Made by a program: the position numbers and the translations under genes
NCBI GenBank assembly: GCA_029260965.1
Contig: JAJDCG010000001.1
Span: forward strand, 20,803-84,802
Length of the DNA: 64,000 nt
Direction: 5' to 3'
From: Candidatus Levyibacteriota bacterium
Lineage (GTDB): Bacteria; Patescibacteriota; Microgenomatia; Levybacterales; UBA12049
The notes under the pieces: model-generated
Seen by the model: the letters and a program-made list of their open reading frames with translations, nothing else
What the model was told of the DNA's origin: nothing
Databases searched by the model: none
Part shown: one piece after another, positions 1,303 through 58,691 of the stretch
How the letters are laid out: each line of letters begins with the position of its first letter
Position numbering within the stretch: position 1 is the stretch's first letter

Positions 1303-2277
1303 CTAGCGACTCAACGCTTTTTTAATTTCCACCAAACCTTCTTCAAAATCAACAATTACTTTATATCCCAACTCTTTTTTTATTTTTGCAATATTATATC
1401 GACGCGACTGAGCAGTAAATGCCCAGGTAAATCTGGTAAGAGGAGGATGCGATTTTAGAAATAAAACCTTCCATACAAGCTCAACTACTACCGCTAATCC
1501 ATAGGCAAAGCCTGATGAAATATTCTTTTTGGGAATTTTTAAATTATATATCTTCAGAAGCCTTATCAGATACTCACGAAATGTTAATCCTGCCTCATCT
1601 GTCACATAATAAATTTCTTTATCTTTCCCTTTTTCAAGACTAAGCATAATTGCCTCTGTTACATTCTCAACATGTGATGTTTCAAACAGGCTTTTTCCTT
1701 TATCTATCCAGACAAATCCACCTGATCTTATTTTATCAATAAGCGCATTCGTGCCGTTACTTCCAACTCCCCAAATATATGAGGGTCTTATGATGATAAT
1801 TTTTGTATTTGTTTTTTTAGAATTTGAAAGCGCTATTTCTGCTTCCTTTTTTGCTCTACCATAGTTTGAATTGGGATTTTTGGGATATAGGTATGATTCA
1901 TCAATATCAATTAATGGCTTTTTGTCCTGAAGCGCTGCTTCAGAGCTGATATAAATAAATCTTTTTACCTTTTGCCTAGACGCACTCTCAAACAATTTCT
2001 TGCTCGCAAGAGTTATTGCTTTGTAATAAAAATCCCACGGTCCCCAAAAAGTAACAGGTGCAGCAAGATGAATCACCACATCAACTCCTGAAAGCTGGTC
2101 TTTCCAGTTGTCAATATCATCAAGTGAGCCCTCAACTATTTTAATCCCCTTTTTCTCAAGATCTGAACTTTTATCAGGACTTCTTGAGAGAATACTCACA
2201 ACATGTTTTTCTTCCAGCAAACGCTTAAGCACATGCCTTCCCAAAAATCCTGTTGCTCCAGTTACAAACACTTTCAT
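1303..2277 (-). CDS. NAD-dependent epimerase/dehydratase (extended SDR family)
   Basis: N-terminal Rossmann motif MKVFVTGATGFLGRHV, YxxxK-type SDR architecture, length about 320 aa. Confidence 0.8.
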   Translation of the reverse strand: MKVFVTGATGFLGRHVLKRLLEEKHVVSILSRSPDKSSDLEKKGIKIVEGSLDDIDNWKDQLSGVDVVIHLAAPVTFWGPWDFYYKAITLASKKLFESASRQKVKRFIYISSEAALQDKKPLIDIDESYLYPKNPNSNYGRAKKEAEIALSNSKKTNTKIIIIRPSYIWGVGSNGTNALIDKIRSGGFVWIDKGKSLFETSHVENVTEAIMLSLEKGKDKEIYYVTDEAGLTFREYLIRLLKIYNLKIPKKNISSGFAYGLAVVVELVWKVLFLKSHPPLTRFTWAFTAQSRRYNIAKIKKELGYKVIVDFEEGLVEIKKALSR

Positions 2278-2777
2278 GTCTTATTTATTTTATTATTTAC
2301 AAACTCGCTTATTTGTTTTTTAAATCTCGCAGAAGAAAATTTCCCTGCTTGCTTGATACAATTTTCCTTAAAAATGTCATTCTGAGCAGAGAAAAGAATC
2401 TCAAATCTTTTTATAGCCTCATTCAGCGCCTCTGAAGTGTTCTTATCAAAGAACAATCCAGTCGCAGACCCTGAACTCTTCAAAGGGTCAATTACCGTTT
2501 CTTTTACTCCACCCGAATGATAAGCAATAACTGGCGTCCCACACATCATCGCCTCAACTGGTGTAATCCCAAAATCCTCATCAACGGATGCAAAAACAAA
2601 CGCCCTAGCATTTGTCATCAGTTCTAATTTCTGCTCATCAGTTACCTCACCCAAGAATTCTATATTTTCTTGCTTGTTGCTTTTTGCTTTTTGCTTTAAC
2701 TCCTCCTCAAATCCCGCAAATCCTTTCCCAAATATTTTAAGTGGTAATTTATTTTCATTAAAAGCTTTCACTATCAC
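2274..2777 (-). CDS. Glycosyltransferase family 1/4 C-terminal half (fragment; out of frame with N-terminal half at 2813-3454)
   Basis: GT-B C-terminal signature region EVTDEQKLELMTNARAFVFASVDEDFGITPVEAMMCGTPVIAYHSGG; start lies 35 nt downstream of the stop of the N-terminal fragment and in a different frame. Confidence 0.7.
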   Translation of the reverse strand: MIVKAFNENKLPLKIFGKGFAGFEEELKQKAKSNKQENIEFLGEVTDEQKLELMTNARAFVFASVDEDFGITPVEAMMCGTPVIAYHSGGVKETVIDPLKSSGSATGLFFDKNTSEALNEAIKRFEILFSAQNDIFKENCIKQAGKFSSARFKKQISEFVNNKINKT

Positions 2778-2812
2778 ATCAACACCTTTTGCTCTAGCCA
2801 GTCTCCCACCTG

Positions 2813-3454
2813 TCAGGTAATAATTACTGGATCTTGGATCTTGGATCTTGGATCTTGGATTTCAACTGGCGGATATATAACTGTCGCATCTTGCTGATAA
2901 AATTTCTTGATCCTGCCTTTTACTTCTTCAGAATTGGCAATAAAATAATCAACGTTTTTTGAAGCTAAAAAATCTACTTTTCTCAAAAAATAATTTGCAA
3001 TTTCTGCAAAAAAAGCAAAAAACTTGTTTTTTTTCCAGTCTCTGGCTGTCTTATATCCATATAAATATCTCGGAGGTGTATGGGTGTAGCAAATCAGAAT
3101 TGGATCTTTGATCTTTGATCTTTGATCTTTGAATCTGTTCCCAACCCAGTTGGGAAAATATGCTCCAGTTTGCGAGACAATCACCACGTCATAGCCTGAC
3201 AAATCAAGGCTGGAGAAAGCAAAAGGAGATAAAAGACGAAGAGGTGAAATCAATTTCTGGCGAAATGGAATCTTGTCCAGAAATGTCGTCTTTATTTTAT
3301 ATTTCTCAAACCTTTTTCTATGCGGACCAAGATAGTCTGGTGCATAAATAGATGTATAGACAGTAGCATCAGGATAAATCTGAAGAAGTGTCTCAAGCAC
3401 TCGCTCTGCCCCACCGTATTCTTTTATGTAATCATGAACTATCGCAACTTTCAT
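2813..3454 (-). CDS. Glycosyltransferase family 4 N-terminal half; reading frame terminates inside a (GGATCTT)n heptanucleotide tract
   Basis: N-terminal GT4 domain (MKVAIVHDYIKEYGGAERV...); C-terminal residues IQDPRSKIQDPVIIT-stop are encoded by the tandem repeat at 2829-2860; second in-frame heptad tract at 3102-3135 encodes KDQRSKIKDP. Confidence 0.7.
   Translation of the reverse strand: MKVAIVHDYIKEYGGAERVLETLLQIYPDATVYTSIYAPDYLGPHRKRFEKYKIKTTFLDKIPFRQKLISPLRLLSPFAFSSLDLSGYDVVIVSQTGAYFPNWVGNRFKDQRSKIKDPILICYTHTPPRYLYGYKTARDWKKNKFFAFFAEIANYFLRKVDFLASKNVDYFIANSEEVKGRIKKFYQQDATVIYPPVEIQDPRSKIQDPVIIT
2829..2860. repeat. Tandem heptanucleotide repeat (GGATCTT)x4.5, GATC every 7 bp; terminates GT N-fragment
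   Basis: Direct reading: ggatcttggatcttggatcttggatcttggat; unit length 7 is not a multiple of 3, so copy-number change shifts frame. Confidence 0.9.
3102..3135. repeat. Tandem heptanucleotide repeat (GATCTTT)x4 plus degenerate unit, in-frame inside GT N-fragment
   Basis: Direct reading: ggatctttgatctttgatctttgatctttgaatc. Confidence 0.85.
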
Positions 3455-3753: not shown

Positions 3754-3990
3754 ATGGAACAAATAAAACAAGAAGTAAGAATCAATTGCTCTAAAAATAC
3801 TGACTACATTACTACACTGGCAGAATTCTGGGATAAATTTTATAAAAAACTTCTCAATGCTGAAAAAACAAGACTTAGATCTACTAGTCCTGCTATAAAA
3901 CCCGATTCAACACTTGAACAAAGAACAGCGGAGGGAAATATTGCAGCAGGTTTAAGAGAACAAATAGAACAAGCTAGCTTCAATGGCTAA
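3754..3990 (+). CDS. Small hypothetical protein (78 aa)
   Basis: ORF follows previous small gene with 9-nt gap; no recognisable motif. Confidence 0.3.
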   Translation: MEQIKQEVRINCSKNTDYITTLAEFWDKFYKKLLNAEKTRLRSTSPAIKPDSTLEQRTAEGNIAAGLREQIEQASFNG

Positions 3991-4988
3991 ACATCAAATC
4001 CAAGCTGTTCTCCATCACTCTTGCTGTCTTCTTTTTCTTCTTCAGGTTCTGATTTTTTATTCAAACCAAACACATCATCAAACCTCTTTGTCAGGCTTTT
4101 AAATCCCTGGTCCACAAACTCTTTATGAAGCGCCGTAGGGTCAAAATCCAAGATCTTGCATTTCTCAGGATCAAATTGGATTGGTACGTCTGTTACGATT
4201 TGCGCCAGCTTCTTGGCAAGTGCTGCCTGCTCAGCATCAGTTGCGAGTTTAAGACCTATTTTCTCAGGCAGATTCCCTACATGTTTGTAAAGATTCTCGA
4301 AAGTGCCATATTCTTGTATGAGCTTGGCTGCAGTCTTGGGCCCAATGCCCGCCACCCCTGGATAACCATCAGACGGGTCTCCAATCAGTGCTTTGTAATC
4401 AACAAACTGAGAAGGAGTAACACCATACTTCTCCTCAACTGACTTTTCATCCATCAAAAGCGTTTTAGTAATACCAGTTATCGGCATAAGGATCTTTACA
4501 TGCCCATTTACAAGCTGCAGCAAATCCCGATCACCTGTTACTATGATAATTTCCAATTTCAAATTTTTTTTCTTTTTTTTATTTGAAATTTGAGATTTGG
4601 AATTGGTATTATTGGTATTTATTCTGGCCGCTTGCGAAGCAATGGTGCCAAGGAGGTCATCTGCCTCATATCCATCCAGTTCAAATACCGCGACTTTCAG
4701 CTTTTCCAAAAAGTCATGAACAAGTGCGATTTGAGGCACAAAATCCTCAGGCAAATCAGGTCTACCCTGTTGGTATCCCGCAAACATAGTTTGTCTAAAA
4801 GTAGGCTTGGGTCTATCAAAACAAACCGCCAGATACTCTGGTTTTTGATCCTGGATAATAAGAAGAAGCATAGAGAAAAAGCCATAAACAGCATTTATTA
4901 CCATTCCCTGATTATTGGTAAGAGGTGGATATGCATGATAAGCCCTGTGCAGAATGGCATTCCCATCTATCAAAATAAGTCTACTCAC
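3987..4988 (-). CDS. Stand-alone 5'-3' exonuclease (FEN-like / PolA N-terminal domain homolog) with low-complexity K/N-rich insertion
   Basis: N-terminus MSRLILIDGNAILHRAYHA, LGTIASQA, IVTGDRDLLQL, helix-hairpin-helix GVAGIGPKTAAKLI are hallmark 5'-3' exo motifs; no polymerase domain follows; insertion NTNNTNSKSQISNKKKKKNLK is encoded by homopolymer-rich DNA at about 4545-4640. Confidence 0.8.
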   Translation of the reverse strand: MSRLILIDGNAILHRAYHAYPPLTNNQGMVINAVYGFFSMLLLIIQDQKPEYLAVCFDRPKPTFRQTMFAGYQQGRPDLPEDFVPQIALVHDFLEKLKVAVFELDGYEADDLLGTIASQAARINTNNTNSKSQISNKKKKKNLKLEIIIVTGDRDLLQLVNGHVKILMPITGITKTLLMDEKSVEEKYGVTPSQFVDYKALIGDPSDGYPGVAGIGPKTAAKLIQEYGTFENLYKHVGNLPEKIGLKLATDAEQAALAKKLAQIVTDVPIQFDPEKCKILDFDPTALHKEFVDQGFKSLTKRFDDVFGLNKKSEPEEEKEDSKSDGEQLGFDV

Positions 4989-9465: not shown

Positions 9466-10767
9466 TCATGAAAGAGCGAGCACTTCTCTCTTAAACTGTT
9501 CCCCACGGTCTTTGTAGTTAGCAAACATGCCAAAACTCACACACCCAGGTGTTAAAATCACCACATCGCCAGAACGAGCAACTTTTGCTGCAGCTGAAAC
9601 AACAGTTTTCATATCTGTCGCATCCTCAATAATCAAGATCTTGGATCTTGGATCTTGAATCTTGGATTTGATCTCGTGCCACTCATCCCCAATACCAATA
9701 ATTGCTTTTATGTTTTTTGCCTCTCTTACCACTCTTCCAAGATCACTAAAATCATTTTTTCTTACTCCTGATCCTCCAAGGATTAATATTTCAGGAGAAT
9801 TAAACGCCTCAATTGCAGCAATTGCCGTTTCAGGCGTGGTTGAAAATGAATCATCATAATACTTCACGCCCCCTATCTCACGAACCAACTCAAGCCTATG
9901 CTCCAAACCTTTAAATGATTTCAAAACTGAAATTATATTTTTTGTCGAAACCCCCACAGTATTTGCAGCCATAACAGCAGCACAAACATTCTCATAATTA
10001 TGCTTTCCAGGAAGTAAGATTTCCTTGGTATCCCCGATCTCATTATCACTACCATTTTTGCGAACAATCACTTTTCCTCCTATTACAAAACAACCATTAT
10101 CAGTCTCCCTCTCACGCGAAACATAGAAAACTTTTCCTTGTGTTTCAATATCAGATTCGTTGCTTGCAGGATAGTCTCTGTTAACTATTGCAAAGTCATC
10201 AGCTGTTTGAAAACGCAAAATGTTTCTCTTTGCATCTATGTATTCTGATAAGTCTTTATGATGATCTAAATGATCTGATGTGATCATGAGAACTACAGCG
10301 ATATGTGGGCTTTTTTTTAGGTCTTTTAACTGAAAACTAGATAGCTCCAGCACAGTCCACGAATGAGTATCTAATTTATCCAAAAAGTTAACTGCAGGCT
10401 CTCCTATATTGCCACCCAGATATGCATCAACTCCTTCTTTTTTTAACATTTCATAGATAAGACTGGATGTTGTACCTTTTCCTTTTGTTCCAGTCACTCC
10501 TATTGCTTTTCCTTTTGCATTACTCAGAAAAATATTTGTTAATGTTGTATATGAGATTTGGATAAGTTCTGATTTCACACCAGGAGATTTTATCGCCAGA
10601 TCATAATCTTTTTGTCTATCCAGATAACCAGCCCCGTCCTTTTGATCAACTATTCCTATCTCTGCATCAGGAACATATTTTTTCAAAAACTTCTCTGCAG
10701 CATGTCCTTCCACTCCATAGCCGACAATTAAAATTTTTTTATTTTTTTTAATATCTTCGATTTTCAT
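9466..10767 (-). CDS. murD: Mur ligase, UDP-N-acetylmuramoyl-L-alanine--D-glutamate ligase-like (MurD or MurD2); carries in-frame heptad-repeat insertion
   Basis: Rossmann N-domain KKILIVGYGVEGHA, Mur ligase P-loop GVTGTKGKGTTSSL, C-terminal Mur ligase domain; in-frame repeat at 9634-9671 encodes KSKIQDPRSKIL. Confidence 0.8.
   Translation of the reverse strand: MKIEDIKKNKKILIVGYGVEGHAAEKFLKKYVPDAEIGIVDQKDGAGYLDRQKDYDLAIKSPGVKSELIQISYTTLTNIFLSNAKGKAIGVTGTKGKGTTSSLIYEMLKKEGVDAYLGGNIGEPAVNFLDKLDTHSWTVLELSSFQLKDLKKSPHIAVVLMITSDHLDHHKDLSEYIDAKRNILRFQTADDFAIVNRDYPASNESDIETQGKVFYVSRERETDNGCFVIGGKVIVRKNGSDNEIGDTKEILLPGKHNYENVCAAVMAANTVGVSTKNIISVLKSFKGLEHRLELVREIGGVKYYDDSFSTTPETAIAAIEAFNSPEILILGGSGVRKNDFSDLGRVVREAKNIKAIIGIGDEWHEIKSKIQDPRSKILIIEDATDMKTVVSAAAKVARSGDVVILTPGCVSFGMFANYKDRGEQFKREVLALS
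9634..9671. repeat. Tandem heptanucleotide repeat (GATCTTG)x3 plus two degenerate units, in-frame inside murD
   Basis: caagatcttggatcttggatcttgaatcttggatttgatc; flanks (aataatNa...ggattt) match the copy at 2820-2866. Confidence 0.85.
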
Positions 10768-12095
10768 ATTGTTAGTATTTGCTGGAATTCATGAGAAAGA
10801 TTATGCGCCCCTGATGTCTCAAAAGATTCTTCCAATAACTTTTTACTATCCATCCTTGTTAAGACATCTGATACAAAAAGTCTCATAGCTTCGTCTTCTT
10901 CATATTCTCCTTTTTTATGTGCTTTATAAAAGGCTATTTTTACCTCAGCAGGTGTTCCCACGCAATCAAAAGGCTTTATTGCGGATTCCCCCAAAAGCTC
11001 TTTGTAAGTCTCTAAAAGTTCTTTTTTTGCAAATAAATTTTCTCCAAAAATCTCAATCAATCTCTCCTTTGCTAAAAAAGCAGCAAGTAATGAAAAAACA
11101 AAAGCACATTTTGCGCACTCTCCACACCATTTTTTATCAGTTGTTTTGTTTATGGCAAAATTTCTGTTGCAGCTTGAAAAACTAGAGAAATATTTATCAT
11201 ATCTTGAAAAAATCTCAGCAATTTTTATCTCACTAAATGGTCTGAGAATTGAAAAATAACATACATCAGGTGTCACAAATTTCTGCAGATATTCTCCAAG
11301 CATGCACTCAAACTCAAACGACTTGCTCCACTGATGATTTATTTCCTGATCCAAATATCTAACGTTTCCATAACTTGATGATCTCTCATTGGCAACAATC
11401 ACATTTTTATAATCATAAAGTACTGCTGAAAAAACTCCGACAAATGCGTAAATAGCAGAGATTGGAACATGTCCGTTTTGAACATCTTTTCTCTTGTTAA
11501 GCTCAAAAATCTGTGGATCAAGAATTCTTTTTATATTTATTCCCCTTTTTCCAACCAGATTCATGACTTCATCCTGCAGATTTGTTTTCTTGAGAACAAA
11601 ACAGTCAAACTCACGACCAATTTTTTTCAAAAGCTCTGCGGCAACAATTGACTCCTTTCCTCCTCCCATGCCAAGCAGTGACCTTTCCTGACGTGGCAGC
11701 GAAACAGAAGTTGGAAAAACGTTATCTGAGTATGGAAAAGATATCAGACCTCGAAAATCAATTTGGTTTTTATAAAAAAACTCACCAAGGCCTTTTGTAT
11801 AGACTGTATTCCAAAATCCTGCTTGATTTTTTGAGAGAGCAAACTTTTCAATAATAATTTCGCGGGGGCAAAATACTTTGTAATAGCTGATGCCCAGGAT
11901 CAGATGCAGGCTCTGTAATACATTTTCTAAAAGCTCTTTTGGGATATCTGTATCAAAGGGCTTTGGAAACTCAAGCGTCTCTCTGAGCTCAATTTCTTCT
12001 CCATTGTGGTTGATCTGATAATCAAATTCTGCGACTCCTGTCTGCGGATCCCAAGTATAATTCTTGAAAATAAATGCGCTCTTCTCCATCTCCAT
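10764..12095 (-). CDS. Hypothetical protein with degenerate PP-loop (GGGKES) and Cys cluster CGECAKC; translationally coupled to murD; candidate MurL-like ATP-dependent enzyme
   Basis: LLGMGGGKESIVAAELLK resembles PP-loop SGGxDS of QueC-type ATP pyrophosphatases; CxxCxxC about 180 aa downstream as in QueC; 4-bp overlap with murD start. Confidence 0.4.
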   Translation of the reverse strand: MEMEKSAFIFKNYTWDPQTGVAEFDYQINHNGEEIELRETLEFPKPFDTDIPKELLENVLQSLHLILGISYYKVFCPREIIIEKFALSKNQAGFWNTVYTKGLGEFFYKNQIDFRGLISFPYSDNVFPTSVSLPRQERSLLGMGGGKESIVAAELLKKIGREFDCFVLKKTNLQDEVMNLVGKRGINIKRILDPQIFELNKRKDVQNGHVPISAIYAFVGVFSAVLYDYKNVIVANERSSSYGNVRYLDQEINHQWSKSFEFECMLGEYLQKFVTPDVCYFSILRPFSEIKIAEIFSRYDKYFSSFSSCNRNFAINKTTDKKWCGECAKCAFVFSLLAAFLAKERLIEIFGENLFAKKELLETYKELLGESAIKPFDCVGTPAEVKIAFYKAHKKGEYEEDEAMRLFVSDVLTRMDSKKLLEESFETSGAHNLSHEFQQILTI

Positions 12096-18763: not shown

Positions 18764-18768
18764 TTTAG

Positions 18769-18841
18769 TGGGCCAGGGAGGACTCGAACCTCCGACATGG
18801 AGTGTATAAGACGCCCGTTCTAGCCGCTGAACTACTGGCCC
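18769..18841 (-). tRNA. tRNA with apparent anticodon TAT (would read AUA, Ile); C29:U41 mismatch in anticodon stem
   Basis: Acceptor GGGCCAG/CTGGCCC, D-arm GTTC-AGCGGCTA-GAAC, anticodon arm GGCGT-CTTATAC-ACTCC, T-arm GGAGG-TTCGAGT-CCTCC, discriminator A. Confidence 0.6.
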
Positions 18842-21282: not shown

Positions 21283-21768
21283 TTATTCCCCTCCTTTACT
21301 ACCATTCAAAAAAAGTATTTTTTTCCATTGTCTGATGATCTCTTTTGCTCTCCATTTAAGAGATGTTTTGATGCTAGATTTTTTTTCAACTGCAATTGCC
21401 TCAGGGAGGCTTACATTACTACCTGTTACGCTTAAAATTGGTTGACTTTGATTATTTGCATGAACTATGCCCGCATCCTGTGCTTCTCTATCAAGATCCG
21501 GCTTCTCCACATCAGGTGTAGGCGAAATAAACTCTCTCAACTCAGCTGAAATCTCAGGTGCGTGTTCTGTAGGGTCAGCTGGCCTTATATCAGACTTTGA
21601 CTCCAAAGCTTCTGCCGCTACATTTTGTGGCGGAAGTGGGGCATGCTCTTTAGCAGGACCTGATACTGGATTCTCCGGCTCTTCTATTGGTTTTTGGAGC
21701 TGGATCTCTTCGTTTTTTTTAACATCGTCTGATTGCTGATTGCTGATTGCTTGTTGGCTATTATCCAT
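21283..21768 (-). CDS. Hypothetical Pro/Glu-rich protein, immediately upstream of and co-oriented with coupling-protein gene
   Basis: 2-nt spacing to downstream gene; low-complexity P/E/A-rich sequence. Confidence 0.35.
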   Translation of the reverse strand: MDNSQQAISNQQSDDVKKNEEIQLQKPIEEPENPVSGPAKEHAPLPPQNVAAEALESKSDIRPADPTEHAPEISAELREFISPTPDVEKPDLDREAQDAGIVHANNQSQPILSVTGSNVSLPEAIAVEKKSSIKTSLKWRAKEIIRQWKKILFLNGSKGGE

Positions 21769-32820: not shown

Positions 32821-32855
32821 CAAAGATCCAAGAACAAAAATCCAAGATCCAAACT
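32821..32855. repeat. Degenerate intergenic copy of the GATC heptad repeat family (reverse orientation)
   Basis: Reverse complement reads agtttggatcttggatttttgttcttggatctttg. Confidence 0.6.
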
Positions 32856-38546: not shown

Positions 38547-38682
38547 AAGCTAAATACGAATATCAAAACAATAAATGACAAAAAGTTTTGATATTTGAAA
38601 ATTATTTAGAATTTCGATATTCGTATTTCGAATTTATAAAAATCAACATTCACTTATAGAAATTAAAAATTGATTTTTATTG

Positions 38683-39091
38683 GGGGATGAATTGATTCGA
38701 CGAGAAACGTACCTTAAAAACTGCAAGCCGGCATTGAATCAAAGCCGTAAAACTGATTCAAAAAATAAATGCTAAAGAACGCATTTCAGCTTTGAAAGCT
38801 GAAGCACGAGCAATCGTTGCTGAACTTTCAAGCGGTTTTCAGCCTAACTACGCAGTAGTCTAAGCTCTAAGCCTGTTCATATAAGTCTTTCTCAACGGGA
38901 TTGTATGGGCATAAACACAGTTGGGAAAAAAATAAAAAGTTTGGTTTCACTTTTTATTGAATTTATCAGACCTAGGCTTTAAAATTCCTGTCAATTGGAT
39001 AATTTAAAGTTGAATTTAATAATTGACTATGCTTGTAGACGTTAAAAGATAATTTACTCGGACTCGATGTCACTCATCGACATCTCCACCA
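38683..39091 (+). ncRNA. ssrA: tmRNA (ssrA)
   Basis: 5' GGGGAUGAAUUGAUUCGACG matches conserved tmRNA 5' end; acceptor GGGGAUG pairs with CAUCUCC + ACCA, giving G3:U70 (alanine identity); T-arm UCGAU-GUCACUC-AUCGA; candidate tag ORF ends ...SSGFQPNYAVV-stop at about 38890; directly downstream of smpB. Confidence 0.65.
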
Positions 39092-57206: not shown

Positions 57207-58691
57207 ATGGATGATGAAGAAAGACAGGATGACGCTCCTGAAGAGGAACCCCAGGATGAAGATGGCGAAAACGATCAAGGAGTTAGCCAACCTGGTGCTC
57301 CAGGTCGTGGGGCCCGTGTATCACAAAAGGGTGGCAGAATAAAAAATGCTCTTAAAGAAGGTGCAAGGGGACTCAGCAAGGGTAAGGGAAAAAACGCAGC
57401 AACAGACGCATTGAAAGGATTCAGGCATGGCAGTATAAACAAAGATGATGAAGACAGTAAACATAAACGACCGTCCCTGAGGCAAATCCGTCGTTTTAGC
57501 AAAATGGCAAAAGGACTTAAGGGCGCAGGTGGCGCAGCTGGTGGAGGAGCAGCAGCTGGTGGAGAAGCAGTAGCAGCAGGCGCAGCAGCAGCTGGTGCAG
57601 GAATGCCTGTTGCATTAATTGTATTAATCGTGGTTTTTGTAATTATTCTGCTTTTTGGCTTTATATTTATGTTTAATAATCCCGAACCCTCAATCCTTTC
57701 AATAACTAAAACTGGCCCAGAAACAGCTTCCTCAGGAGAGGAAATAACTTATCAGATAAATGTCTCATATCCCGACACGGCAGAAAATATAATAATAAAA
57801 GATCGTATTCCTTCTGAAACCGACTATGTATCCTCCTCTCCCTCTGCTAGATTTGACGCTTCTACAAGGACAGCTACGTGGAGCCTAAGCGAGTTTATTT
57901 CCCCTATAAATAATGTGAACACCACTCTAAACATCAGCCTGCGCATAAAAGATGGGCTAACAAATGTCAACATAATCAACCTGTCCGAGGGTGAAGTTAT
58001 TGGTGGCGGAACTGACCCAGGCACCGGAACTCCGACAGGCGATATCGCAAAACTATTGCCCCAACCCCTACCCCCAGACTCTCCCTCGGTTCTAAACCGC
58101 AAATCAGCAGTCATACTATCAACACAAAACACCACGAACAAGGAAGCATACGAAAAAGCCTCTCTAGCCACAGGCTTACCCTGGCAGGTTTTTGCAGGCA
58201 TACACTACAGAGAGGGAGGGGCTGCTCCAAACAAATCTATTGTCAGTGGTAGAACTATTGGCTCCCGAGAACCAGATGTTGAAAATGGACCAGGGTGCAG
58301 CGTGCATAATACAAAAGGAGCTACTGATGGTCTTGCTGAAAAACTCAGCAGTGGGGGCTGTGGTTTTAGTTCTCTTGCTGATTCAGCAATCTATGCAGGA
58401 ATTCTTTTGAAAAAAAAGGTTAACGGTAACCTGAATAGCTACGAGGACCTTGTAAAAGCTTTGTCAAGATACAATGGCGGTGGTAACGCAAACTGTGGAA
58501 AGACACCCTATACTGGTTGTCCAAAACTCTTCTACGGAGAAGACGACACTTATGTCGTAAACCTTTTTGATGAAAAGCACGCAACTATGTATGTTGTTTA
58601 TTGTGCTGATCACACCTTGTGTAATCCTCCCAAAACAGACTCTCGACCAGGCGCAGCAACAGCTATAAAATGGGTTTCGCAGTCAAATTAA
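57207..58691 (+). CDS. Surface/membrane protein: acidic N-terminus, Gly/Ala-rich segment, TM, DUF11 (conserved repeat) domain, Cys-containing C-terminal domain
   Basis: ITKTGPETASSGEEITYQINVSYPDTAENIIIKDRIPSETDYVSSSPSARFDASTRTATWSL fits the DUF11 repeat pattern; single TM VALIVLIVVFVIILLFGFIFMF. Confidence 0.4.
   Translation: MDDEERQDDAPEEEPQDEDGENDQGVSQPGAPGRGARVSQKGGRIKNALKEGARGLSKGKGKNAATDALKGFRHGSINKDDEDSKHKRPSLRQIRRFSKMAKGLKGAGGAAGGGAAAGGEAVAAGAAAAGAGMPVALIVLIVVFVIILLFGFIFMFNNPEPSILSITKTGPETASSGEEITYQINVSYPDTAENIIIKDRIPSETDYVSSSPSARFDASTRTATWSLSEFISPINNVNTTLNISLRIKDGLTNVNIINLSEGEVIGGGTDPGTGTPTGDIAKLLPQPLPPDSPSVLNRKSAVILSTQNTTNKEAYEKASLATGLPWQVFAGIHYREGGAAPNKSIVSGRTIGSREPDVENGPGCSVHNTKGATDGLAEKLSSGGCGFSSLADSAIYAGILLKKKVNGNLNSYEDLVKALSRYNGGGNANCGKTPYTGCPKLFYGEDDTYVVNLFDEKHATMYVVYCADHTLCNPPKTDSRPGAATAIKWVSQSN

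Follow-up and report, generated by a model that had tools for sequence, protein, structure and literature searches.

A heptanucleotide array in murD of a Candidatus Levyibacteriota bacterium, probably a microsatellite kept in place, and a sister array that puts a glycosyltransferase gene out of frame

Heptanucleotide repeats are described as the most abundant class of long simple sequence repeats in most prokaryotic genomes, and a proposal that 7 nt matches the polymerase footprint links this length to slippage (Mrazek 2007, as relayed in PMC4679880 and PMC4692102). Genome-specific heptamer families include the short tandemly repeated repetitive (STRR) sequences of cyanobacteria, TAACTGA in Beggiatoaceae and Cyanobacteria, and GGGAATC in Xanthomonas, and their mechanism is not known (PMC4679880, PMC4692102). 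A coding example is neuO of E. coli K1, the O-acetyltransferase gene of prophage CUS-3, which carries (5'-AAGACTC-3')n and is ON if the copy number is divisible by 3 (PMC13001214). The present analysis concerns a heptad array inside murD, and its relatives at other loci, in a 64 kb stretch of DNA (the window) from a Candidatus Levyibacteriota bacterium. The kind of repeat is already known, and its setting, the loops of core Patescibacteria proteins, is unusual. To our knowledge, neither the period of 7 nor the dominance of a single unit within a genome has been explained. The murD tract is probably a heptanucleotide microsatellite that has arisen and been kept in place and not a transposed element. 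A more consequential fact, missed by an earlier sequence-only reading of this DNA, is that a sister array puts a conserved GT4 glycosyltransferase (GT) gene out of frame.

The murD tract and its host gene are located as follows.
Positions 9466 to 10767, minus strand: murD, UDP-MurNAc-L-Ala--glutamate ligase of 433 aa, the tract host (Pfam Mur_ligase_M and Mur_ligase_C; TIGR01087).
Positions 9637 to 9671, minus strand: the murD heptad array (Tandem Repeats Finder: period 7, 4.4 copies, 91% matches).

The murD product scores 334 bits against TIGR01087 (cut-off 212), and its orthologs, which are 57-72% identical, are labelled MurD in Patescibacteria/Levybacteria. On the plus strand, the tract reads GATCTTG GATCTTG GATCTTG AATCTTG GATTTGA, with GATCTTG as the unit repeated 4.4 times. 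Its sense strand forms six in-register heptads, ATCAAAT CCAAGAT TCAAGAT CCAAGAT CCAAGAT CTTGATT, of which four are good and the flanking ones decayed; three units are perfect. The tract is in frame and codes for I366-I377, IKSKIQDPRSKI. The tandem GATC heptads that the sequence-only reading had noticed within murD are real, and its view of the repeat as a feature of the DNA, beyond the peptide alone, also holds. The lag-7 match fraction of the tract is 0.69, placing it in the top 1.3% of the gene's 42-nt windows, and the 14-mer GGATCTTGGATCTT, with up to 2 mismatches allowed, has 13 matches in the window against 0.87 expected, a number reached by 0 of 100 shuffles. Because an independent Logan assembly (L001) carries the murD tract identical base for base, this tract is no assembly artefact. 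An AlphaFold model of MurD, generated from a 20-sequence alignment, has a mean predicted local distance difference test score of 85.7, with values of 70-82 local to the tract. In this model, helix 362-370 reaches its C-terminal end within the tract, which continues through loop 371-377 to where strand 378-380 starts, so that the tract is predicted to occupy a solvent-exposed helix end and loop of the C-terminal domain, in agreement with the surface-loop location considered earlier.

The tract has been taken for an insertion into murD, and comparison with relatives does not bear this out. An alignment of 20 MurD orthologs (60-72% identical in global alignment) has no gap across the tract, as seen in IKSKIQDPRSKILIIEDA versus IKSKIKDQKSNILMVEDA, IKAEIKNPKSKILFIEDA and IKSEIRNPKSEIPIIEGA, and the spacing from the EW to the IEGA motif is exactly 16 residues in 93 of 110 MurD homologs. 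Ortholog DNA was obtained by exact-protein look-up; a scan of genome contigs with the MurD alignment gave 59% at best among the matches listed. Heptad arrays appear at the same site in related loci. L083 and L084 have a perfect (AATTTCC)4.6 array, equivalent to (TTTCCAA)4.6, which encodes FPISNFQFP, and L086 has a decayed form of the AATTTCC unit. RAAATCC-like units encoding the peptide IKNPKS are found in L085 and L002, and a decayed A-rich heptad is found in L082. In 7 of 9 loci, lag-7 identity at the murD site ranks in the top 0.4-1.8% of gene windows. The units are in register and only 1-2 bases apart (RAAATCC, AAGATCC, AATTTCC), and each difference is present in every unit.

The same periodicity is visible in the proteins. 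Of 120 MurD homologs, 13 contain a stretch of 4 or more residues repeated at lag 7, most of these stretches at the tract site, with zero at the other lags from 4 to 12. The two halves of the MurD repeat co-vary (KSEI..KSEI, KSQI..KSQI, KSKI..KSKI), and for the column pairs (6,13), (7,14) and (9,16) no more than 4 of 2000 shuffles do as well as the real sequences, counts that are inflated by sequence relatedness. The copied substitutions and co-varying halves argue for concerted evolution of an old array. Judged from these comparisons, in which Patescibacteria homologs share, at this one site and in register, a periodicity of 7 bases and 7 residues, the murD array is old. The sequence-only reading had named, as evidence that would tell against it, an ancestral peptide in relatives whose DNA has no repeat structure. 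A homologous peptide of equal length is indeed present in relatives, but the DNA that encodes it is heptad-periodic too, so that peptide and nucleotide repeat are both ancestral.

Related and unrelated arrays were sought across the window, where they are distributed over several loci.
Positions 2274 to 3454, minus strand: GT4 glycosyltransferase gene, otherwise intact, consisting of ORF (open reading frame) 2813-3454 (213 aa) and ORF 2274-2777 (167 aa).
Positions 2670 to 2697, minus strand: array of TTGCTTT x4 (sense AAAGCAA) in the GT4 gene, in frame, encoding KQKAKSNKQ.
Positions 2828 to 2860, minus strand: perfect array of TGGATCT x4.7 (sense AAGATCC) in the GT4 inter-domain linker, reading IQDPRSKIQDP.
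Positions 3103 to 3132, minus strand: array of GATCTTT x4.3 (sense AAAGATC, 1 base from AAGATCC) in the GT4 gene, in frame, encoding KDQRSKIKD in a variable-length loop.
Positions 4548 to 4619, minus strand: low-complexity insert in the 5'-3' exonuclease gene 3987-4988, with a 9-mer x2 and the degenerate heptads TCCAAAT CTCAAAT TTCAAAT.
Positions 21729 to 21751, minus strand: array of CTGATTG x3.3 (sense CAATCAG) at codons 6-13 of a 161-aa hypothetical protein, in frame, encoding QQAISNQQS.
Positions 32821 to 32852, minus strand: intergenic degenerate array of the AAGATCC unit, TTGGATCTTGGATTTTTGTTCTTGGATCTTTG on the minus strand.

The census of arrays and the sharing of units were both counted within the 64 kb. 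Tandem arrays that reach at least 3 perfect copies number five, all with a period of 7 (2677, 2828, 3103, 9637 and 21729), and periods 4-6 and 8-12 have zero. Degenerate heptad arrays are found at 32821-32852, 4548-4619 and 38604-38635. All 5 perfect arrays are inside ORFs, and the only intergenic arrays are the degenerate ones at 32821 and 38604. The first of these sits upstream of rpiB (start 32768), between it and a Cei/LytR_C-like gene (stop 32855). No Rfam family overlaps any of the arrays. In 1.42 Mb of murD loci, 15 arrays have period 7, against 8, 1, 1 and 4 arrays of periods 4, 5, 6 and 8, respectively, and none of periods 9-15.

As the sequence-only reading had stated, the heptad unit recurs: a near-identical unit is present at 4 loci, written AAGATCC at 2828, 9637 and 32821 (the last being degenerate and intergenic) and AAGATCA, or AAAGATC, at 3103. 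AAGATCC is stop-free in all six frames, and three units (21 nt) encode the hydrophilic heptapeptide KIQDPRS in any frame. The other perfect arrays of the window have unrelated units, AAAGCAA and CAATCAG.

The sequence-only reading went further and proposed a dispersed repeat of roughly 45 bp that shares flanks as well as core and inserts in frame in the manner of Rickettsia palindromic elements (RPEs). RPEs are palindromes about 100-150 bp long that share a full-length consensus and are seen as insertions relative to orthologs. A mobile element of this type would account for one core in two genes on the same strand with the hexamer AATAAT near both, and it is nonetheless extremely improbable here. 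The length of MurD is unchanged relative to its orthologs, and orthologous sites carry arrays of different units. When the 20 nt flanking each side are compared without gaps, every pair of the 4 copies agrees at 2-6 of 20 positions, which is at the level of chance (null mean 5.3, 95th percentile 9). AATAAT is the sole flank sequence in common and lies at different offsets. In murD, it corresponds to codons I379-I380, which are also ATT ATT in L083, L084 and L086, and in the GT gene it belongs to the codons for S-N-Y-Y, just ahead of the conserved motif YYLTGG. GGATTT, the 3' sequence common to both copies, is a repeat unit that has decayed, and it overlaps conserved host codons (E-I in GT, I-K in MurD). 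Terminal inverted repeats are absent from the tracts, and none of their hairpins stands out. Since no element of 45 bp with flanks of its own exists, the comparison with RPEs fails, and the reading of the tract as an inserted dispersed element appears to be wrong on all of these counts; the observation that prompted it is real. A hairpin or cruciform was also considered as a candidate in its own right and rejected, as the tract DNA folds with z scores of -2.3 to +0.3 and the small GC hairpin beside the L083 and L086 arrays is unremarkable.

Under the favoured explanation of a microsatellite kept in place, replication slippage or intra-array conversion would create and maintain the murD array where it is, and unit changes would be copied into all units of the array by concerted evolution. 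Selection would permit only one loop length in murD, so that the array remains in frame. The murD array is probably stable and without a function of its own, as it is in frame and partly decayed, with three perfect units. The tract also appears, from the comparison of orthologous genes, to be part of a lineage-wide habit of heptad arrays in the loops of core proteins. Slippage as the mechanism is our inference; the anatomy of the arrays, the lack of an insertion, the periodicity in orthologs, the co-variation and the frameshift are shown.

Several points weigh against this explanation in its simple form. The arrays are short (3-4.7 units), and slippage rates may therefore be low. In-frame intermediates 7 aa longer or shorter are absent among the 110 MurD homologs, and a one-unit slippage would be lethal in murD, yet the array would have been homogenised at constant length. 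Such constant-length homogenisation is not covered by simple slippage. The murD genes of L083 and L084 are 76% identical, with only 51% identity at synonymous codons, and share an identical run of 62 nt (11083-11145 in each) that consists of the array and its flanks, including the GC-rich CCGCATGCGTGCGG; the next longest run is 17 nt. This run suggests that the two genes have recently exchanged DNA or that the sequence is constrained as DNA. Finally, 4 loci in the window share nearly one unit despite 1170 possible classes of heptad unit. An independent origin at each locus is unlikely, because the unit is shared by 4 loci and is no commoner than controls in viral contigs (see below); cross-talk between loci or a genome-specific bias is needed.

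The source assembly of L082 and L084, GCA_040384045.1, has two distinct contigs with murL-murD-ftsH in synteny, the MurD proteins of which share 85% identity, and this bin mixes two related populations.

The identical run in L083 and L084 is also relevant to a function of the DNA itself, in which clustered GATC sites would serve Dam-type methylation or SeqA-like binding, or the array would be the site of some other protein. GATC occurs once per unit in all four related arrays, and the apparent change from AAAATCC-like units to AAGATCC creates it. The GATC/Dam idea, raised in the sequence-only reading, is very unlikely all the same: the observed/expected ratio of GATC is 0.90, like that of other 4-base palindromes, the arrays of relatives at the orthologous sites have units without GATC (AATTTCC, GAAATCC, AAATTCC), and a spacing of 7 bp is out of helical phase.

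The sharing of a unit might instead reflect a universal preference for it. (GGATCTT)3 is present in at least 120 metagenome contigs with a GC content of 0.29-0.72, often adjoining other heptad arrays. In viral contigs, (GGATCTT)3 has 2 matches, and equally stop-free controls of matched composition have 3, 16 and 74. The unit as a universal attractor was rejected on this basis, and since it is not commoner than the controls, a universal preference cannot account for the sharing.

Another possibility is the spread of one heptad unit between loci by ectopic gene conversion or by templated synthesis at breaks, which would yield a true dispersed family without mobile flanks. AAGATC[C/A] is common to 4 loci in 64 kb, and the murD gene of the Doudnabacteria locus L005 has two separate in-frame arrays in two loops (10235-10267 and 10383-10412), both made of AAATTCC (KFQIPNS). 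The murD tract and GT site 1 (the linker array) both show the apparent change from the AAAATCC-like units of relatives to AAGATCC in the source genome, and the TAACTGA and GGGAATC families typically have a single genome-specific heptamer that dominates (PMC4679880, PMC4692102). In the source genome, this evidence covers only 64 kb of a 549-kb contig, a stretch that also has the unrelated units AAAGCAA and CAATCAG. No candidate enzyme or template was identified, and the arrays, at 21-35 nt, are short for homologous recombination. Spread between loci is, on the whole, unlikely. The L005 murD gene is also a second instance, beside the window, of one unit common to several arrays in a genome.

The GT4 gene is split exactly at the tract 2828-2860, and at the present array length its C-terminal half is out of frame. 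The sequence-only reading had placed two coding copies on the minus strand, both in frame; the strand, the GT peptide IQDPRSKIQDP and the reading frame of the murD copy are as described, but the GT copy is out of frame. The two ORFs are fused by the addition of one unit or the removal of two (5.7 or 2.7 units). The +1 form encodes 395 aa, with the Pfam domains Glyco_transf_4 at 13-200 and Glycos_transf_1 at 204-354. Since the first domain ends at 200 and the second begins at 204, the array lies in the inter-domain linker. Along its entire length, the restored +1 protein shares 77% identity with ortholog P0121, which is intact; the closest relatives in the databases are at 72% for MurD and 77% for GT. 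The locus is syntenic with L086, and its neighbours are genes for an NAD-epimerase and an EamA transporter. The linker has 14 residues in the +1 allele versus 13 in L086, which makes the loss of one unit from an ON allele of 5.7 units the simplest history. The GT4 array has most likely gone from 5.7 to 4.7 units, frameshifting the gene. The resulting OFF state would be reversible in principle, like the neuO heptanucleotide switch; we infer both this reversibility and the direction of the change.

Orthologs of the GT4 protein have heptad-coded peptides at the three array loops (IKNQESR, NPKSEIR, NTKYKIQ, NYQLPTT, KNQKSKI), with lengths that vary widely, and the differences in loop length stem from arrays of different units at the same site. 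L082 has (GAAATCC)4.6 in frame at the linker site, and L086 has a degenerate array of AGCAAAA, the same unit class as AAAGCAA, at GT site 2. Lag-7 runs of at least 4 residues are present in 14 of 120 GT4 homologs, versus 0-2 at the other lags from 4 to 12, and they are located at the tract sites of the window.

The frameshift could be an error of assembly or consensus, with the gene intact in the cells. The source is a metagenome-assembled genome (MAG), repeats are error-prone in some pipelines, and the GT homologs found (more than 7800) are all intact, which is partly a consequence of searching a protein database. Such an error would, however, have to equal exactly one 7-nt unit within an array of 33 nt, which is shorter than a read. 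The murD array is reproduced exactly in the independent Logan assembly, and the deposited source genome contains the same two GT4 fragments, P0271 and P0266. An artefact is accordingly quite unlikely.

The GT array, and perhaps the whole family, may be an evolved contingency locus. Frequent gain or loss of 7 bases would then turn a glycosyltransferase for surface glycans ON and OFF within the population and so hedge against phage or host, much as happens in neuO and in the LOS and capsule genes of Haemophilus and Campylobacter. This proposal adds a function to the microsatellite reading and does not contradict it. The frameshift falls exactly at a perfect array and the remainder of the gene is undamaged; the NAD-epimerase and EamA transporter genes beside it suggest envelope sugar chemistry; a unit of 7 nt is not divisible by 3, so the frame of the ORF shifts with copy number; and neuO offers a precedent (PMC13001214). 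Other results are difficult to reconcile with frequent switching. The coding arrays checked in relatives are in frame in 6 of 6 cases (two in L005 and one each in L041, L082, L083 and L084), and so are the other four coding arrays of the window, whereas about one third in frame would be expected of a fast-switching class. The GT array has only 4.7 units, and no second OFF allele was found. Look-ups of neighbouring proteins for variants of GT tract length returned none, or contigs (SRR15505512 Logan) that end before the tract. A protein search centred on the GT tract returned only the source-genome fragments P0271 and P0266, so that the OFF allele alone is seen, with orthologs that have other units ON. 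Taken together, these observations make the contingency locus less likely than not.

Two candidates for further evidence of switching were discarded. Two truncated GT homologs were followed as possible OFF alleles and ruled out, as L304 reflects a scaffold gap and L303 a non-canonical start codon. A frame-continuity heuristic applied to metagenome contigs (18 'shifted' versus 17 'in frame') was discarded as unreliable, because GC-rich contigs have long spurious open frames and some arrays are at gene starts. In the GT4 ortholog at L303:2660-3771, the conserved N-terminus (KIKIALVQDY...) lacks all three of the codons ATG, GTG and TTG, and the gene caller began at an internal Met; its true start may be a non-canonical codon.

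The remaining features of the window are given here with the subjects they adjoin. The gene upstream of murD (10764-12095, minus strand) overlaps it by 4 nt and encodes a MurL-type UDP-MurNAc-L-Ala-L-Glu epimerase, with a full-length match to NF041275 (E 5.7e-117) and 56% identity to the L082 ortholog, which is annotated MurL_N/MurL_epimerase_C. These matches suggest a MurD2/MurL route to D-Glu. In L085 and L086, a glutamate racemase gene occupies the position of the MurL-type gene. The insert in the exonuclease gene (4548-4619) encodes about 20 aa (RINTNNTNSKSQISNKKKKKNLKL) and is without counterpart in all 4 orthologs, including the 88%-identical one in L086. The 161-aa hypothetical protein (ORF 21283-21768, minus strand) has no NCBIfam match and a low-complexity look, and its heptad array near the start codon is placed like the neuO repeat. 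The weak heptad array at 38604-38635 falls in the spacer between smpB and ssrA. Just downstream of smpB, Rfam identifies a transfer-messenger RNA at 38683-39091 on the plus strand (113.9 bits), for which ARAGORN made no call. The sole non-heptad array of note is an 18-nt-period tandem repeat at 57534-57602, GCAGCTGGTGGAGGAGCA x3.8, with overlapping 15-nt and 3-nt periodicities, which would encode an Ala/Gly-rich segment if it is within an ORF. A tRNA-Ile with anticodon TAT is located at 18768-18841 on the minus strand. This tRNA is uncommon in bacteria, in which AUA is usually decoded by a lysidine-modified CAT tRNA.

The arrays are of interest for two reasons. Known heptamer families are almost all intergenic and therefore cannot be aligned across species. 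The arrays described here are inside conserved proteins, so their orthologous sites remain alignable even between deeply diverged lineages, and each array's history can be read, in the form of in-register units, substitutions copied to all units and a fixed loop length; this opens an old puzzle to comparative genomics. In addition, heptad arrays can break genes in Patescibacteria MAGs, which affects annotation, whether as false pseudogenes or as real switches, and metabolic inference. Literature searches returned no report of heptad arrays or of repeat-driven phase variation in Patescibacteria. A GT switch, if real, would be the first such phase variation reported from this group (the Candidate Phyla Radiation), as far as those searches reached. 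A broader speculation, which we consider somewhat unlikely as a whole, is that Levybacteria and related Patescibacteria have lineage-wide heptad 'loop microsatellites', fixed at certain loops of core proteins, among them MurD, GT4 and the 5'-3' exonuclease. These would predate the splits of the lineages, would be re-homogenised to a genome-specific unit at constant length by an undescribed process of conversion or templated repair, and would occasionally act as reversible frameshift switches where regulatory capacity is minimal.

Each of the known systems resembles these arrays in part. With RPEs they have in common that short repeats lie in frame within conserved genes at protein-surface positions, and they differ in that murD has no insertion, no consensus extends past the heptads and there is no palindrome. 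The tandem repeats of Borgs are comparable in that perfect repeats arise in ORFs and add hydrophilic, loop-like or disordered segments (PMC9879509). Here, by contrast, the sites are conserved across a bacterial lineage. As the unit here is 7 nt, only every third copy number is in frame. The STRR, TAACTGA and GGGAATC families are alike in having period 7 exclusively and related arrays adjacent to one another; they have one or a few related units at many loci of a genome, and the arrays here share one at 4 loci within 64 kb. Those families are overwhelmingly intergenic and often G-rich or stop-containing, whereas the arrays here are mostly within housekeeping ORFs, with an A-rich sense strand and stop-free units. 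The neuO repeat is similar in having a 7-nt coding unit that specifies a hydrophilic heptapeptide in all three frames (KTQDSRL in neuO, KIQDPRS here), in yielding a full-length protein only at the right copy number modulo 3 and in belonging to a gene that modifies a surface glycan (PMC13001214). The neuO array has 3-53 copies, is located at the 5' end of its gene and is demonstrably polymorphic, whereas the arrays described here have 3-5 copies and are located in internal loops of conserved core genes, including the essential murD.

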